Part shown: piece by piece, positions 34,077 through 39,210 of the stretch | Layout of the letters: the number at the start of each line of letters is the position of its first letter | Numbering within the stretch: position 1 is the first letter of the stretch | Assembly (NCBI GenBank): GCA_963666975.2 | Contig: CAXVYR010000002.1 | Coordinates: 192,001 to 256,000, forward strand | Direction: 5' to 3' | DNA from: Terriglobia bacterium | Lineage (GTDB): Bacteria > Acidobacteriota > Terriglobia > 2-12-FULL-54-10 | DNA: 64,000 nucleotides | The notes under the pieces: generated by a model | The model's input: only the letters and a program-made list of their open reading frames with translations | Database searches by the model: none | What the model was told of the DNA's origin: nothing | Translations under genes and position numbers: made by a program

Positions 34077-34736
34077 TCACGAAAGAGCGCCCGGAATCTC
34101 CGCTGTGAATTTGCGGACACGCTCCCAAATTTCTTCCAGCACATCCAGCAGTTGGTGGTCCGAGTCATAGAGAACCAACTCGGCGTTTGAGCGGTCTTCG
34201 GCAAACCGGACCGAAAGACGGTGGTCCACCGTCTCATCGGCGCGTCCGTGGACAACCAGCGCGGGCTGACGGACGTCGGGAAAGGCCTCATACTGCAGGG
34301 CGTCTTCCAGAAGACGGTAGGAAAGATTGCGGACCTGCTTTTCGCCAAAGTGGTACACCTGACGCTGACCCCGCTCTCGCCACTCGCGCATGACATCCTC
34401 GCCGAGCGAGGCTGCCCAGTACCGTGCCAGGTCGAAGGCCGGGGCCAGCAAGACCACGCCCGGAACGCGCCGGAGATGCCGCGCCGCGAACAGCGCCGCC
34501 AGGTAAGCTCCCATGCTGGAGCCGATCAAAACGGCAGGCCCTGCTCCCACCAGCCGGTCCAGCAACGACAGTTGCCGCGAGAGTGTAGTGTTTTCAAAGT
34601 CGCCCTCGGTCAAATCCGGCAGCTGGAGTTCGTAGCCCAGCTCCGCGAACCGCTGGCGGAAAAACTGCCCCTTGCTCGAATCCGGCCCGGAAGCAAATCC
34701 ATGCAGATAGAACAGGGTAAAGTGATCGCTTGACAA
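34077..34736 (-). CDS. YqiA/YcfP-family alpha/beta hydrolase (esterase)
   Basis: YLHGFASGPDSSKG, GSSMG, HG.ADETV, DHQL. Confidence 0.9.
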   Translation of the reverse strand: MSSDHFTLFYLHGFASGPDSSKGQFFRQRFAELGYELQLPDLTEGDFENTTLSRQLSLLDRLVGAGPAVLIGSSMGAYLAALFAARHLRRVPGVVLLAPAFDLARYWAASLGEDVMREWRERGQRQVYHFGEKQVRNLSYRLLEDALQYEAFPDVRQPALVVHGRADETVDHRLSVRFAEDRSNAELVLYDSDHQLLDVLEEIWERVRKFTAEIPGALS

Positions 34737-34930
34737 GCAGAAATTCCTTCATTCACCCTGGCATGGACGCTCGAACGTCTTAGCAGCGAATCCGCGCCGG
34801 GTGTTTTTCTCCAGATTTCTATCCAGCTTTTATATCCAGCTTTTTATTCGGGGAGCCATCCTAGTCCATTTTGCGGGGTGCGTAAAGGATTAGGCGTCAG
34901 CGGGTAGTGGGGTCACAGATTGGCGATGCT

Positions 34931-35137
34931 CTATCCGCGATCTAGCCGAATTGCCTGAAGGGTAGCATGGATTGCTTTAGCACGTTCGTCCTGGGCCAGC
35001 CTTCGCCATTTTTTCTTCTTTGCTTCTGTGCTAGCCTTATCGCCCATTTTGTCTAGTTCGAGGGCCCTCCGCGTGTGCTTAATAGCTTCGTTGTCGTAGA
35101 AGGCTGCCGCCACTTTGTCACCCAAACGCCCTGCCAT
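34931..35137 (-). CDS. small basic hypothetical passenger protein (68 aa)
   Basis: RBS aaggggga before ATG, directly downstream of the transposase stop; stops next to the TIR. Confidence 0.55.
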   Translation of the reverse strand: MAGRLGDKVAAAFYDNEAIKHTRRALELDKMGDKASTEAKKKKWRRLAQDERAKAIHATLQAIRLDRG

Positions 35138-35151
35138 TTTTTTATCCCCCT

Positions 35152-36096
35152 TTATTCGATAAGTTCTCCAAGGCTCCAAATGTGATCCGTGATCCCTGCC
35201 TCCATCGCAGGCGTTACGCGCAGTGTGCCATGAATCCGACAGAAATTATAGTGAGCAAAATGCAAGGCTAGGGCAGCCTGCAAATTCTCCCATTTCTTGC
35301 TGAAAGCGTAGGTCAGCCGGGTAAGCCTCTTGCACCATTGCCGGAGAGTCCCATTCTGCCTTTCCACATGGCTAGTGCAGATGCGAGCCGGGTCTGGACT
35401 GCCAATAATCGGGGTTGACACGGTTCCTATGACCTCTCCTGGACTGTAACGCTCTCGACCATCTTCTGGCTTGCCGTAGACCTTGACCAGTTGTGCGTAA
35501 TCGACCCGATCTGTGAGGGCGTAATCAATCGCTGACGGGTAGCAGGGGAAGCCGTCCGTGCTAAGCTGAAACGGCCTGTCTGCGGTAGTCTTTCGCACCT
35601 TTGCAATAAATTCGTTTGTGCTGATTTGGTTTCTTTTCCCAAGGTGCCAAGCTACCACCAGCTTCGTGTGCCGTTCGAGTCCGATGAAGGTGTAGGCTTC
35701 CCCGATCTTGTAATTATTTAGCTCAGCAATCCATTTGTGCTGTTCTTTCTTGAACACGAACGACCAAATCTCATCAAGCTGCAAATCTTCCACGGGCACA
35801 TTCCGCAGCCGCTTTTCTAGCAGCCGTTCGCAGTGATCCCCGGCGGCTTTCAGCAGGTTTAGCACTGTCCGCTTTTCCACATGACAAAGGCGAGCAGTGC
35901 CCCTTACGCTGTTCCCTTCCACAAGGCAATGAAGGATCATGTTTACCTTCTCCAGCGGGAGCCGTGCATAGCCCAAGGGCTTGTCCTGAGGCTCGCTGTA
36001 CCGCTTCCCACACTGTTTGCACTGGAATCTCTGAATTGCTTTCTTTCCAAATTTCCCGGCCTTCACCATCTCGATCTCGCAATTGTGGCACGTCAT
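35152..36096 (-). CDS. IS1-family transposase (single ORF: Zn finger, HTH, DDE)
   Basis: CHNC/CKQC, GNSVRGTARL, LQLDEIWSFV, STDG, HVERQNGTLR..KRLTR.T.AFSK, TPAMEAG. Confidence 0.93.
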   Translation of the reverse strand: MTCHNCEIEMVKAGKFGKKAIQRFQCKQCGKRYSEPQDKPLGYARLPLEKVNMILHCLVEGNSVRGTARLCHVEKRTVLNLLKAAGDHCERLLEKRLRNVPVEDLQLDEIWSFVFKKEQHKWIAELNNYKIGEAYTFIGLERHTKLVVAWHLGKRNQISTNEFIAKVRKTTADRPFQLSTDGFPCYPSAIDYALTDRVDYAQLVKVYGKPEDGRERYSPGEVIGTVSTPIIGSPDPARICTSHVERQNGTLRQWCKRLTRLTYAFSKKWENLQAALALHFAHYNFCRIHGTLRVTPAMEAGITDHIWSLGELIE

Positions 36097-36178
36097 TTTT
36101 GACCTTGCTTTCTTCGAGCCGGTGAGCCAAAATGACGGAAGGTGTCACAACCTCGTTCTTTGGCTTCGGCCTGAGAAT

Positions 36179-36211
36179 GGCCCCGCTGGTAGCTATAACT
36201 ACTAACGGGGC
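36179..36211 (-). other. stem-loop immediately 3' of the passenger tRNA
   Basis: gccccgttagtagt-tata-gctaccagcggggc on minus strand; no U-tract. Confidence 0.6.
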
Positions 36212-36222
36212 AGTTATCAAAC

Positions 36223-36323
36223 TGGCGGTGAGGGTCCGATTCGAACGGACGGGAGTCTGGTGTTCTTGGCACCACTCCACCAAATTTACAGTCTGGCGCG
36301 TTAAACCGCTCCGCCATCTCACC
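36223..36323 (-). tRNA. atypical 101-nt tRNA: Ser-type body with GTA (Tyr) anticodon, 29-nt variable region, A7:C66 mismatch
   Basis: GGTGAGA TG GCGGAGCGGTTTAACGC G CCAGA CTGTAAA TTTGG [var arm] GTCCG TTCGAAT CGGAC CCTCACC G CCA. Confidence 0.85.
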
Positions 36324-36397
36324 ACAGAATCAAAGGCCAGGGAGTTAGGTTTTTGGAACCTCATTCTCTGGCCTTTTGTTTTGTGTAACATAAACGT

Positions 36398-36448
36398 ATT
36401 ATGCAATATTGCATGGATAATGTCAAGGCTTAAAATGCAATATTGCAT
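36398..36448. promoter_or_regulatory. overlapping divergent sigma70 promoters with two 14-bp palindromic operators (atgcaatattgcat)
   Basis: Minus strand TTGACA(36426-21)-17bp-CATAAT(36403-398); plus strand TTGCAT(36409-14)-16bp-TAAAAT(36431-36); palindromes at 36401-36414 and 36435-36448. Confidence 0.75.
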
Positions 36449-36469
36449 AAGAAAGCTTTTTGGTGTAGT

Positions 36470-36889
36470 ATGGCGCTGTGGAGGTTCATGGACTATGAAA
36501 CGGAAGATCGTCTAAATCTGATCCAGCAATGGTATGAAGTTCAAGACGACGCCGTGAAAGTAGCCTTTGATTACACGTTGCGTATACTGGCGGCGACAGA
36601 AGATTGGAACGATTCTAGCGTCAAAGAGTTTAAGGTTCTGACTAGAAAGCATGTTGGTCTTTGTGAAATTAGATTCAAAACAGATGCGAGACATCCAAAC
36701 GGTGAACCCTACAAGAGAAGATTTAGGCCGGTAGGGGTATGGCGTCCAGATTCTAGAGATTTTGTGCTTTTGTTAGGCTGTGAGAAATGGGGGATGAATT
36801 ATATCCCCCCAAACGCTTTTGATTTAGCGTTGGATTACAAGACTCAATATTTTGAGCAAGGAAGGGGCGCAATTTATGAGCACATTTAG
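36470..36889 (+). CDS. RelE/HigB(Gp49)-like toxin
   Basis: W.F..Y....N.I..W...GLCEIRFK...RFRPVG...FVLLLGCEK pattern; overlaps the downstream HTH gene. Confidence 0.7.
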   Translation: MALWRFMDYETEDRLNLIQQWYEVQDDAVKVAFDYTLRILAATEDWNDSSVKEFKVLTRKHVGLCEIRFKTDARHPNGEPYKRRFRPVGVWRPDSRDFVLLLGCEKWGMNYIPPNAFDLALDYKTQYFEQGRGAIYEHI

Positions 36890-37466
36890 GCAATTGTGGC
36901 TCAAACTTACGAAGAGCAAAAAATACCGAGAGGAGTTCGTTGCTTCTCAGGTCAAGCGTGGAATTCCCTTTCAAATCCGCACGATGATGAAGCATGAGGG
37001 GTTTTCCCAAGAAAAGCTGGCCAAACTTTCCGGTCTGACCCAAGGAGTCGTTTCCAGGGCCGCGAATCCCGATTACGGGAATCTCACGCTTAATACTGTC
37101 ATCAGAGTTGCAGCCGGGTTTGATGTTGCCTTTATCGGACGCTTTGTGCCCTTCAGTGAATTAGGGGGATGGTTTACTAACTTGTCGGAAGAGTCAGGGA
37201 AAATTCCCACGTTTGAGGAAGAGAACAGGGCGATGGAGCAGTGGGGGCCGTCGAGAGAAGAGGGTGACGACTCAAGCGTTGCAGCGGCGATTTCATCTGT
37301 GAACGACAGGTATGACAAACGACCTGCAACCAGAATGGTGGCAGAAGATACTAACGTGCTGACGAAATCGGAGGATGCTCCATCTGACCGGAGGGCGGTA
37401 GAGAATGTACTTGTTAATTACTTGCCCGAGGGTAGGAGCACAATCAATGCGGGGTTATTGCCATGA
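36876..37466 (+). CDS. XRE/HigA-like HTH antitoxin with long C-terminal extension
   Basis: QIRTMM..EGFSQEKLAKLSGLTQGVVSRAANPDYGNLTLNTVIRVAAGFD HTH; RBS ggaagggg. Confidence 0.82.
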   Translation: MSTFRQLWLKLTKSKKYREEFVASQVKRGIPFQIRTMMKHEGFSQEKLAKLSGLTQGVVSRAANPDYGNLTLNTVIRVAAGFDVAFIGRFVPFSELGGWFTNLSEESGKIPTFEEENRAMEQWGPSREEGDDSSVAAAISSVNDRYDKRPATRMVAEDTNVLTKSEDAPSDRRAVENVLVNYLPEGRSTINAGLLP

Positions 37467-37879
37467 CAAAGAAGGAACCAACTAAACAGATCAACGACGT
37501 CGAAGTGGTCGAGGAACAATTACCATTCCCTCATCCAGAAAATTATGCTTACACGAATGCTGCGCTGATTTCCATGTCAAGCTGGGACATTAGGTTGTCT
37601 TTTGCAGAAACACGCCCTAATTCAGAGGCCATATCCAAGGCTGGCGTTGTAATGACCCCCGCCCATTTTAAGGCGCTCACCGTTGCAATGTTCCAAAACT
37701 TGAAAAGTTACGAATCAGTGTACGGTGAGATTATCATCCCTCTGCCCAAGCAACCAGAACAAGCCAAACCAAAGGAAGAAGGCGTAGTTGAGAAGGGGGA
37801 GCAGGCCGGGAAAAAGGCCGAGACGGAAGGGATGCGGGTTCCCAGACCGCCAATCAAACGCACAACAAAGCCACGCTAA
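37463..37879 (+). CDS. DUF3467-like protein
   Basis: YTNAALISMSSWDIRLSF...VVMTPAHFKAL...NLKSYESVYGEI pattern; ATGA overlap with the antitoxin stop. Confidence 0.75.
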   Translation: MTKKEPTKQINDVEVVEEQLPFPHPENYAYTNAALISMSSWDIRLSFAETRPNSEAISKAGVVMTPAHFKALTVAMFQNLKSYESVYGEIIIPLPKQPEQAKPKEEGVVEKGEQAGKKAETEGMRVPRPPIKRTTKPR

Positions 37880-38250
37880 AGCCCTACAACCCCAGCAAGC
37901 GATCAGGTATCAATGCGGGGTTATTGCCATGACGCACAAACTTGGCGCATTGCCCATCGCCAATCTATGACCCCACTACCCGTCATCGGCATCCATCAAG
38001 ATTGGTATGCCCTTCCGAAAATGTTTTTTTAGACAATAACCATGACACCAAAGGTGCTGACTTGAGCCTTGGAGGTGGTCATTACCGAGAGTCACCGTCA
38101 GACTTACGGGATCATAATCCAGATTCCTCGATAGATTTCCCACAAAAACAGCACTCATAGCCCTTTTCCATCGTGAGGCTATGATGCCACGGAAGCCCGC
38201 CTGATTCCCATTTTTTCCAAACTAGAGCACTACCCAAACCCTTCTCCCAC

Positions 38251-38279: not shown

Positions 38280-38314
38280 GGTTACTCTTTAACATTGTTG
38301 AGGTGGTGATAGAA

Positions 38315-38764
38315 GTGTCAACTTATTTCCCCTCCAAGGGGGAGGTCCAACCGAAATGGTATTGCGTGGACGCGGAAGGACAGGTATTAGGCCGGCTGGC
38401 AACGCAAGTGGCCACTTTGCTGCGCGGCAAGCATAAGGCGGAATTTACCCCTTTCCTAAACCTCGGAGATCATGTCATTGTGATCAATGCGGCCAAGGTG
38501 CGCCTTACAGGCAACAAGCTGGCTCAGAAGGTATACCGCCATCATACGGGCTATCCTGGCGGGTTGGTGGAAATCAGCGCTCAGAGGATGATGGAGCGCA
38601 AGCCGGAAACCATGGTGCGCGAAGCGGTGCTCGGCATGCTGCCCAAGAATAAGCTGGGGAAGGCGATAGCAAGGAAATTGATGGTTTACCGGGACGGCAA
38701 GCACCCCCATGAGGGACAGAAACCAGAGCCTTACCGGTTGCTGGCTGCCAAGCAACTAAACTAG
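38315..38764 (+). CDS. rplM: 50S ribosomal protein L13
   Basis: WY.VDA...LGRLA, GKHK..FTP, HTGYPGG, GMLPKN. Confidence 0.98.
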
Positions 38765-38799
38765 AGACAGACCAGCCAGAACCAGTTCGAAAGGAAAAA

Positions 38800-39210
38800 A
38801 TGGAAGAGCAGGCGAAGGGCCCAATCGAGCAATATTACGGAACGGGAAGGCGCAAGTGCAGCGTGGCGCGCGTCTTTTTGCGTCCCGGCAAGGGCGACTT
38901 CCTGGTGAATGGCCGTCCGATGGACGCATATTTTCTGGGGGAGCCGCAGCGGGTGCGGATGCAGCATCCACTGCAGATAACGGAATTGACCGGGAAGTTC
39001 GACGTGCTCATCAATGTGCGTGGAGGGGGCATCGTAGCACAGGCTGGCGCAGTCCGGCTAGGCATAACGCGTGCGCTGCTGGTTTATGATGCCGAGTTGC
39101 GGGGCAAACTCAAAAAGGTGGGTTTCTTAACCCGCGATGCGCGGATCAAAGAGCGCAAAAAGTACGGCCAGAAGGGCGCACGGAAACGGTTCCAGTTCTC
39201 CAAACGCTAA
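38800..39210 (+). CDS. rpsI: 30S ribosomal protein S9
   Basis: [29 protein letters not shown]. Confidence 0.98.

Follow-up and report, generated by a model that had tools for sequence, protein, structure and literature searches.

Bacterial transfer RNAs (tRNAs) whose anticodon disagrees with their identity marks are rare, and the reason for their existence is an open question. What does such a tRNA do on a mobile element, upstream of a transposase gene and opposite a toxin operon? The question is raised by a locus in the DNA of a Terriglobia bacterium (NCBI GenBank assembly GCA_963666975.2, contig CAXVYR010000002.1, positions 192,001 to 256,000 of the forward strand), a soil or groundwater acidobacterium. 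The whole stretch of 64,000 nucleotides (nt) is called the window below, and positions are counted from its first letter. Positions 34903–37980 hold an intact IS1-family transporter insertion sequence (IS) of 3078 base pairs (bp), of the type with a single open reading frame (ORF), which is probably a recent insertion. We lean slightly toward reading it as an IS with a tRNA slot, an XRE-gated toxin module, and a missense tRNA.

A bounded IS1-family element with passenger genes

The element and its duplicated target site are composed as follows:

34895–34902: left copy of the target-site duplication, cgtcagcg, found by eye; seven of eight positions match 37981–37988
34903–34928: terminal inverted repeat on the transposase-stop side, starting GGTAGTGGGG; 25 of 26 positions match the other end
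35152–36096, minus strand: single-ORF IS1-family DDE transposase gene, 314 amino acids (Pfam and NCBIfam), with a putative N-terminal CxxC...CxxC zinc finger
36223–36323 including CCA (36226–36323 plus CCA), minus strand: accessory tRNA gene with a 7/5 cloverleaf, anticodon GUA, G73, and encoded CCA (Rfam and RNAfold)
36332–36376, minus strand: leader hairpin, AAAGGCCAG ... CTGGCCTTT, 8 nt upstream of the tRNA, with A-rich and T-rich flanks (repeat search)
36398–36426, minus strand: sigma-70-type promoter, TTGACA-17-CATAAT, 11 of 12 consensus positions, directed toward hairpin, tRNA and transposase
36401–36414 and 36435–36448: two exact copies of a 14-bp palindrome, ATGCAATATTGCAT, between the divergent units; presumed XRE operators
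36470–36889, plus strand: HigB/Gp49-like toxin gene, 139 amino acids (structure model, fold matches, Pfam matches of relatives)
36876–37466, plus strand: gene for an XRE-family helix-turn-helix (HTH) antitoxin/repressor, 196 amino acids, HTH_3 at 24.8 bits against a cut-off of 23, with a C-terminal tail that is variable in an alignment of 13
37463–37879, plus strand: DUF3467 gene, third of the operon, 138 amino acids, PF11950 at 44.9 bits against a cut-off of 25
37955–37980: terminal inverted repeat on the cargo side; 25 of 26 positions match the other end
37981–37988: right copy of the target-site duplication, cgtcatcg, found by eye

Both inverted repeats begin with GGTAG, and the match read by eye can be extended to 38-nt arms at 87% identity, as given by the repeat search. 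The repeat pair of the window is not a chance match, because relatives have the same GGTAG... termini together with perfect 8-bp target duplications; L041, L042, L045, L051, L058, L059, L097, and L114 are examples. Relatives bounded by their own repeats measured 2.0–3.6 kb in total. The window element thus has the terminal inverted repeats and the short direct target duplication of the IS1 family. Its passenger genes lie inside the inverted repeats, as they do in relatives with their own duplications, so that they would move with the element; this is the mark of a transporter IS.

The transposase supports the same assignment. Its ORF matched the Pfam family DDE_Tnp_IS1 with 32.4 bits (cut-off 24.1) and the NCBIfam model transpos_IS1 with 97.3 bits (E 1.1e-27), slightly below the cut-off of 100. 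The zinc motif CHNC...CKQC is visible in the translation; the NCBIfam model IS1_IS1595_Zn scored 16.1 bits, below its cut-off of 28. The frame is continuous and needs no programmed frameshift, with the 314-residue ORF aligning with relatives over residues 1–313. A previous model-made description of this DNA (referred to here as the sequence-only reading) had proposed an IS1-family transporter element of this extent, with these repeats and this duplication, a leftward hairpin, tRNA, hairpins, intact transposase and 68-residue ORF, and rightward RelE/HigB-like, XRE-HTH, and DUF3467-like genes. Repeats, duplication and unit were recovered at the same positions, the leftward parts were found by ORF search, Rfam, repeat search, and inspection by eye, the rightward genes by Pfam, fold matches, and relatives, and the DDE_Tnp_IS1 match with the cargo inside the inverted repeats bore out the classification.

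The same description had also proposed to look for the empty site in relatives. The same-genus genome G402, with flanks of ~94% identity, carries the same neighbour genes 367 bp apart and lacks the element, and the left-flank homology ends at position 34901, 1 base before the repeat. The 253 bp to the right of the element have no counterpart in G402. The right-hand intergenic DNA differs in this way, so the empty site lacks a clean junction to the right. In contigs of other public DNA runs, the same insertion site is occupied by the element.

One could suspect an accident: an ordinary IS would have come to lie next to a tRNA gene and a toxin-antitoxin locus of the host, with a stray solo end as the outer repeat. 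With a single full copy in the 4.23-Mb genome and without the right-hand junction to G402, the window element taken by itself would permit this. The explanation is, however, hardly credible, since many independent elements of different genomes show this order between inverted repeats of their own and with perfect 8-bp duplications. Furthermore, the host has its own normal tRNA-Tyr elsewhere, and no inner repeat copy between transposase and tRNA was detected by the repeat search of the window or by the copy search of the genome. We regard it as nearly certain that the element is a real, mobile transporter IS whose cargo is conserved. Elsewhere in the same genome, a related IS1-type transposase is present as a remnant (C4:1710347-1710790; 68–69% nucleotide identity, ~240 bp).

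The tRNA slot and its contents

The window tRNA lies 127 nt upstream of the transposase gene on the same strand. It scored 46.9 bits with the Rfam tRNA model RF00005 (gathering score 29), with GUA as the anticodon. ARAGORN called no tRNA here at default settings and gave a malformed call only at lowered thresholds, probably misled by 27 nt inserted in the variable arm; the RNAfold cloverleaf has a 9-bp variable stem. The gene was therefore identified by Rfam and by a purpose-built covariance model, R1. Its acceptor and discriminator region (GGTGAG... CTCACC G CCA) has six of seven pairs and G73 in common with tRNA-Ser(CGA) of the host. In the host, G73 is found in all four tRNA-Ser, and A73 in tRNA-Tyr and in the five tRNA-Leu. 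The tRNA on the element is an extra one, because an ordinary tRNA-Tyr(GTA) is encoded elsewhere in the genome, in the usual Thr-Gly-Tyr cluster.

For seryl-tRNA synthetase the anticodon is irrelevant; the enzyme recognises the long arm and the acceptor end, which is textbook knowledge and likewise stated in the text of PMC7609411. Given the serine-type acceptor end and long arm, the simplest prediction is a tRNA that accepts serine and reads tyrosine codons, which fits the term "miscoding-type" that had been applied to it.

To see how far this arrangement extends, relatives of the transposase were collected from genomes (best 80 of 150) and metagenomes (best 80 of at least 525). The 161 loci, window included, fell into 146 clusters at 98.5% nucleotide identity. 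Slot tRNAs were detected with ARAGORN, Rfam (19 loci), and our own covariance model, and cargo proteins with profiles iterated from six elements. The counts were:

All clusters (146): slot tRNA 42; toxin–XRE pair 21; DUF3467 gene 21; tRNA and toxin 19
Clusters with at least 350 nt upstream (129): slot tRNA 41; toxin–XRE pair 21; DUF3467 gene 21; tRNA and toxin 19
Clusters with at least 2200 nt upstream (93): slot tRNA 25; toxin–XRE pair 15; DUF3467 gene 15; tRNA and toxin 14
Close relatives with at least 55% identity, full N-terminus and at least 2200 nt upstream (16): slot tRNA 12; toxin–XRE pair 10; DUF3467 gene 9; tRNA and toxin 10

In the relatives, the slot tRNA lies 120–230 nt upstream of the transposase gene on the same strand. 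We conclude that the tRNA cargo is not a one-off capture and that the layout is common to dozens of related elements. When 79 transposases were placed in a quick tree, one clade of 29 contained all 12 toxin-bearing genome loci, and the slot was filled 15 times in it; outside this clade it was filled in 8 of 50 cases, including loci labelled Planctomycetota, Myxococcota, Methylomirabilota, and Actinomycetota. The cargo of the second clade is a coiled-coil/winged-helix-like protein or a pair of proteins with 270–330 and 94–100 amino acids. The window element belongs to a widespread clade, mostly in Acidobacteriota, whose transposase gene is immediately preceded by a cassette of hairpin and tRNA; its own subclade has retained the divergent three-gene operon as well.

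The slots contained 44 distinct tRNAs, of which 40 have all seven acceptor pairs and 20 an encoded CCA. Most have a canonical 7-nt anticodon loop with U33 and a purine at position 37; degenerate forms of 66–70 nt or with 6- or 8-nt anticodon loops also occur. Among 13 aligned class-I slot tRNAs, 88% of the cells were paired, compared to 63% in shuffles, and 17 of 21 pairs showed two-sided changes, a test that is partly circular because the sequences had been picked by tRNA detectors. This pattern points to selection on the tRNA fold.

Nine of the 44 carry G3:U70, seven of them together with A73, and their assigned anticodons are ACU, ACU, CCA, ACA, and GCU, never one for alanine. In the host, G3:U70 is restricted to three tRNA-Ala genes and one odd ARAGORN call. 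The eight long-arm slot tRNAs with G73 have the anticodons GUA (4), UAC (3), and UAU (1), never one for serine. Four slot tRNAs with CGC, which reads an alanine codon, are without G3:U70, and L094 combines, by eye, a leucine-like body with a GGA anticodon. As judged from these marks, slot tRNAs appear mostly to join a serine-type or an alanine-type (G3:U70) body to the anticodon of another amino acid.

Two pairs of slot tRNAs have near-identical bodies and differ mainly in the anticodon loop, namely L134 (UAC) and L140 (GUA), and L044 (GUA) and L126 (UAC). The switch between GUA and UAC has therefore occurred at least twice. The slot as a whole appears to exchange its content, because tRNA types do not follow the transposase tree. 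In both pairs (L134:1680-1767 and L140:3287-3375; L044:3780-3869 and L126:1511-1603) the 5′ halves are near-identical, and GUA and UAC are reverse complements of each other.

Is the tRNA a decoder at all? The main rival explanation is that it acts in cis as the leader of the transposase transcript: fold and hairpin would insulate the transposase gene from read-through, cleavage by RNase P and RNase Z would set the 5′ end of the mRNA and the transposase level, and the anticodon would be drifting or irrelevant. Such a role would suit the upstream position ~120–230 nt from the transposase gene, fixed on the same strand in both transposase clades and with three types of cargo, the hairpin immediately preceding the tRNA in 39 of 44 slots, the shuffling of tRNA types relative to the transposase tree, and the degenerate slot tRNAs. 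It would also suit a transposase that requires its own tyrosine codons to be read as tyrosine, and the text of PMC5389517 describes some acidobacterial allo-tRNAs as inactive in translation. A processing signal, however, needs neither the canonical 7-nt loop with U33 and purine 37 that most slot tRNAs have kept, nor the encoded CCA of 20 of them, nor identity marks (G3:U70 with A73; long arm with G73). Nor does a leader role predict differences concentrated in the anticodon loop between near-identical bodies, and most family members do without any tRNA. We consider the leader role a serious but rather unlikely explanation and place it below that of a decoding-active missense tRNA, to which we give a little less than an even chance.

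Some further observations concern unusual tRNAs. In L040:3736-3808, L042:3802-3874, and L132:2337-2409, the T-loop reads TTGGA for TTCGA and the D-loop GC for the usual GG; judged by eye, the two bases of the 19:56 tertiary pair seem to be swapped, which would imply selection on the three-dimensional tRNA fold. A tRNA-Sec-like sequence at L039:5293-5378, with the anticodon UAU and a score of 50.4 bits in Rfam tRNA-Sec, lies downstream of a related transposase gene at a distance of ~360 nt. In the genome of the window, ARAGORN called an odd 96-nt "tRNA-Ser(aga)" at C3:934710-934805 with the anticodon at position 38 and G3:U70, which may be a false call or another irregular tRNA. The idea that slot tRNAs serve as guide RNAs was rejected, since the anticodons are, by eye, unrelated to the target duplications of the listed elements.

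The three-gene operon and the control region

The XRE gene overlaps the toxin gene by 14 nt, and the DUF3467 gene follows as the third member; it was found in 10 of 12 toxin-bearing genome loci. PF05973 (Gp49) was matched by 3 of 12 aligned relatives of the toxin (best E 1.3e-6) and is carried by 8 of 49 database homologues. A structure model of the toxin built on 12 relatives reached a predicted local distance difference test (pLDDT) score of 93.8. Foldseek returned HigB1 of M. tuberculosis (7nbu) and HigB of S. pneumoniae (6af4) as the best matches of this model, with probability 1.00, template modelling scores up to 0.63/0.72, but E of only ~4e-3. The modelled RelE/HigB fold and the Gp49 matches of relatives and homologues together suggest that the first plus-strand gene encodes a HigB-type toxin. 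With overlapping genes, an HTH partner, and upstream palindromes, the anatomy is that of a putative type II toxin-antitoxin system.

The model of the DUF3467 protein had a pLDDT of 75, with more than 90 in a core composed of a three-strand-plus-helix unit, and its likeness to COMM, Pur-alpha, and PC4 domains was weak (Z 6.1 or below). A complex prediction for XRE and DUF3467 gave a score of 0.01, which speaks neither for nor against binding. Used as profiles against solved structures, the toxin and DUF3467 alignments yielded chance-level matches only. NCBIfam had no match for either protein, PADLOC found only weak HTH "control protein" matches on the element, and a protein atlas search returned DUF3467 clusters only. 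A second, unlinked DUF3467 copy is present in the same genome. In the literature searched, we found no description of DUF3467 as the third partner of a toxin-antitoxin pair. A SecB-type chaperone was considered for this protein but found no support, as SecB is not among the fold matches listed and the host genome has no match to the SecB family. The genome also contains a second, distant HigB-like/XRE pair (L226, C4:326029-326358).

The operon and the tRNA–transposase unit diverge from a common control region. The first palindrome copy (36401–36414) is located in the spacer of the minus-strand promoter. Between toxin start and tRNA, a strict scan flagged element-specific palindromes in 7 of 10 toxin-bearing relatives, and in 10 toxin-bearing elements the palindrome region is followed by a promoter-like −10 and the leader hairpin. 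Counted from the table of slots, 39 of the 44 tRNAs are preceded, at 5–24 nt from their 5′ end, by a strong hairpin with a stem of at least 8 bp, for example in the window at 36332–36376 and in L078, L114, and L051. Because the stem sequences differ among slots and A/T-rich flanks are frequent, the leader hairpin looks like a two-way terminator; it may serve as terminator, attenuator, or processing site. The positions of the palindromes suggest that one repressor controls both divergent units, which we consider fairly probable.

The sequence-only reading had seen tRNA, toxin-antitoxin genes, and transposase as one system wired to a shared operator region. The shared region stood up, as the promoter into tRNA and transposase overlaps the palindromes; the unity of the three parts has to be qualified. 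The proposed co-occurrence was found in homologous elements, with a tRNA in 19 of 21 toxin-bearing clusters and both in 10 of 16 close relatives. Among 400 other Acidobacteriota genomes, the toxin profile found matches in 20. In nearly all of these loci the XRE gene was adjacent, in 9 the DUF3467 gene; only 6 had an IS1-type transposase gene within 1.5 kb, and ~3–4 a divergent tRNA-like gene. Since the HigB-XRE-DUF3467 operon is also found without transposase or tRNA, it is a self-standing module that the IS clade acquired. We conclude that tRNA, toxin operon, and transposase are modules and not an obligate trio, and that the tRNA follows the transposase no less closely than it follows the toxin operon.

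These counts also bear on the possibility that the tRNA is a partner of the HigB-type toxin, filling the A site at cut codons and in this way tuning or limiting toxicity, or else that it serves as a decoy or spare when a competing element or phage attacks another tRNA. The frequent company of tRNA and toxin would fit, as would at least two toxin loci (L215 and L207) with a divergent tRNA-like gene and no IS1 transposase found within their 1.5-kb flanks. HigB-family toxins, moreover, have as their target the codon of the mRNA that occupies the ribosomal A site, as the title of the 7nbu entry and general background have it. We nevertheless judge this explanation very unlikely. At least 22 tRNA-bearing clusters are without a toxin operon (some of them ended by a contig edge), the divergent position was without a tRNA match in 16 of 20 stand-alone toxin loci, and nothing links the anticodons to the toxin, which is not known to prefer any codon.

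L209, L212, L217, and L218 are stand-alone HigB-like/XRE/DUF3467 operons with no IS1 transposase gene within 1.5 kb. The closest chromosomal toxin–XRE pair (L006; G239:C1, 1052-2613; 41% and 55% identity) is followed by a third gene for 236 amino acids that is not DUF3467, and neither a tRNA nor a transposase gene lies within ~1 kb of the locus in either direction. Searched at the DNA level, 400 genomes of the same phylum yielded little besides the conserved C-terminal region of the transposase and one toxin–XRE locus.

The remaining features of the element and its surroundings are:

34077–34736, minus strand: left neighbour gene, alpha/beta-hydrolase-like, named by reading the translation
34931–35137, minus strand: small uncertain ORF, 68 amino acids from ATG or 82 amino acids (34931–35179) from TTG at 35179, overlapping the end of the transposase gene
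36181–36210, minus strand: stem-loop in the interval from the tRNA 3′ end to the start of the transposase gene, found by eye; within the RNA contig 36158–36335 described below
37443–37467 and 37909–37933: 25-nt exact direct repeat bracketing the DUF3467 gene (repeat search)
38303–39210: right neighbour genes, read as the ribosomal protein genes rplM-rpsI, named from the translation

The small ORF had no family match and no homologue by tblastn in 80 related genome loci. The 25-nt repeat covers the end of the XRE gene and the ATG of the DUF3467 gene. Its second copy is polymorphic, because positions 37898–37931 are missing from the contigs of two further public runs of DNA (X1 and X3). The repeat suggests gene-cassette exchange or partial duplication at the position of the third gene.

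Proposed mechanism, known systems and meaning

From the anatomy, homology, family-wide conservation, and identity/anticodon mismatches observed above we infer repression, toxicity, charging, and miscoding, which would act together as follows. The XRE protein, alone or with the toxin, would bind both palindromes, the second of which overlaps the likely promoter of the toxin operon. With palindromes in both divergent promoters, the antitoxin level would gate the addiction module as well as the tRNA–transposase transcript. The leader hairpin would attenuate this transcript, and processing of the tRNA would release the transposase mRNA. Upon derepression, an anticodon-blind synthetase would charge the tRNA, producing a missense tRNA of the allo-tRNA kind, and tyrosine codons would be read as serine.

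Several observations weigh against this picture of a gated missense tRNA. The window tRNA has A7-C66 and G13-A22 mismatches, and its variable arm is longer than that of any host tRNA. The transposase gene has tyrosine codons at the invariant tyrosine columns Y186, Y217, and Y283, so that miscoding of tyrosine to serine would harm the element's own transposase. Among the 129 family loci with at least 350 nt of flank, 88, or about two thirds, have no tRNA; the slot is filled also beside other cargo and in elements without the toxin operon, and two toxin-bearing clusters, L063 and L077, have no tRNA, so that a role in the transposase transcript would explain the tRNA distribution equally well. 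The window toxin itself had no match in Pfam, NCBIfam, or PADLOC. As to expression, contigs of two metatranscriptome runs, all at 100% identity, cover 36158–36335 (run X19), that is, the tRNA with short flanks, parts of the toxin gene (36555–36727 and 36491–36711), and the neighbouring rplM; these contigs are only a weak hint, because ends, strand, and level are invisible in them and DNA carry-over is possible. Transposase, XRE, and DUF3467 genes were not covered, which is no evidence of silence. According to the text of PMC5389517 (Mukai et al., 2017, Nucleic Acids Res), an abundant group of allo-tRNA(UAU) was inactive in E. coli, and non-translational roles were proposed for it.

The notion of a private code, in which the genes of the element need the odd tRNA, was rejected. 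The transposase tyrosine codons at invariant tyrosine columns rule it out, and AGU, UGG, and UGU codons in relatives show no alanine or serine pattern.

Streptomyces has a tRNA-Pro with an alanine anticodon and its own synthetase, a case of deliberate mistranslation. Like the window tRNA, it is a natural accessory tRNA whose anticodon and identity disagree; unlike it, it has a dedicated synthetase, whereas the window tRNA resides on an IS beside a presumably repressor-controlled promoter. Closer by phylum are the allo-tRNAs of Acidobacteria, accessory tRNAs with serine or alanine (G3:U70) marks and diverse non-cognate anticodons. The text of PMC5389517 describes acidobacterial allo-tRNA genes near toxin-antitoxin systems, one of them overlapping a transposon-related ORF, and allo-tRNAs of this phylum inserted serine or alanine at non-cognate codons in E. 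coli (PMC5389517, PMC7609411, as far as their texts go). The window tRNA seems to carry their mark, a serine or alanine identity with a non-cognate anticodon, in its G73, long arm, serine-like stem, and GUA, and L045 and the tRNA adjoining L039 share a long 9-bp acceptor stem with the allo-tRNAs. With a 7/5 structure including one A-C mismatch, it lacks the defining 8/4 or 9/3 structure (12-bp branch) and is therefore not a structural member of this group. The text of PMC5389517 defines no IS with repeats and duplication, IS1 slot, HigB-XRE-DUF3467 operon, or shared operators; its figures and supplements may show more and may already depict some of these loci.

In M. tuberculosis, HigB1 and HigA1 form a tripartite system with a SecB-like chaperone as the third gene in order. 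The window operon resembles it in that HigB1 (7nbu) is the best fold match of the toxin model and in having a toxin, a long-tailed HTH antitoxin, and a small third gene. It differs in its third protein, which is DUF3467, with SecB not among the listed fold matches.

The element shares DDE_Tnp_IS1, repeats starting with GGT, the 8-bp duplication, one unshifted ORF, passengers inside the ends, and possibly the N-terminal zinc finger with single-ORF IS1 members. We take ISMhu11 to be the name of this subgroup; the name was not found in the literature searched. Unlike IS1 transporter ISs, whose concept is set out in PMC9330008, it has a tRNA and a regulated toxin operon as passengers, with the tRNA slot conserved across the clade. 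Tn3-family transposons also carry toxin-antitoxin passengers (reference 152 in PMC9330008), according to that text as type II pairs inside the transposon at its own control region. The element described here differs in its transposase family, in having no resolvase or res site, and in the third DUF3467 gene and the tRNA.

Thus, IS1 transporter ISs, toxin-antitoxin passengers in transposons, HigB-type toxins, and acidobacterial allo-tRNAs with a loose link to toxin-antitoxin loci and to a transposon-related ORF are already known pieces. The sequence-only reading did not recognise their combination as described. This agrees with the literature searched, in which, among the titles listed for passenger tRNAs on IS1, mistranslating tRNAs on transposable elements, and transporter ISs with toxin-antitoxin genes, we found nothing on this layout; it has to be narrowed by the allo-tRNAs near toxin-antitoxin systems and a transposon ORF in the text of PMC5389517. 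As far as searched, four things are new: an IS1-type element with defined ends, in which a leader hairpin precedes a conserved tRNA slot of exchangeable content; its coupling to operator-overlapped promoters; the HigB-XRE-DUF3467 module; and canonical 7/5 tRNAs that, besides 8/4 or 9/3 forms, show the mismatch of identity and anticodon.

At its widest, the favoured reading would make the ISs of this clade mobile carriers of repressor-gated missense tRNAs. A fall of the antitoxin upon stress or invasion would lead to the insertion of serine or alanine at chosen codons, with transposase made at the same time. We consider this extension quite unlikely. The codons that would be targeted are often rare, A/U-ending ones (AGU, GUA, AUA, and UGU). 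If it were true, a burst of targeted mistranslation would harm AT-richer invaders or reshape the host proteome, and the tRNA slot, with its exchangeable content, would amount to a natural toolkit that spreads horizontally and reassigns codons.

Insertion sequences are able to spread tRNA genes, and HigB-XRE-DUF3467 is a recurrent three-gene module. tRNAs with disagreeing anticodon and identity can here be assigned to a definite genetic setting, namely a mobile IS1-type element with clear ends, in which a fixed slot is accompanied by a likely repressor and a toxin-antitoxin module; dozens of variants occur, in several phyla. The question of why they exist becomes testable with a 3-kb clone.

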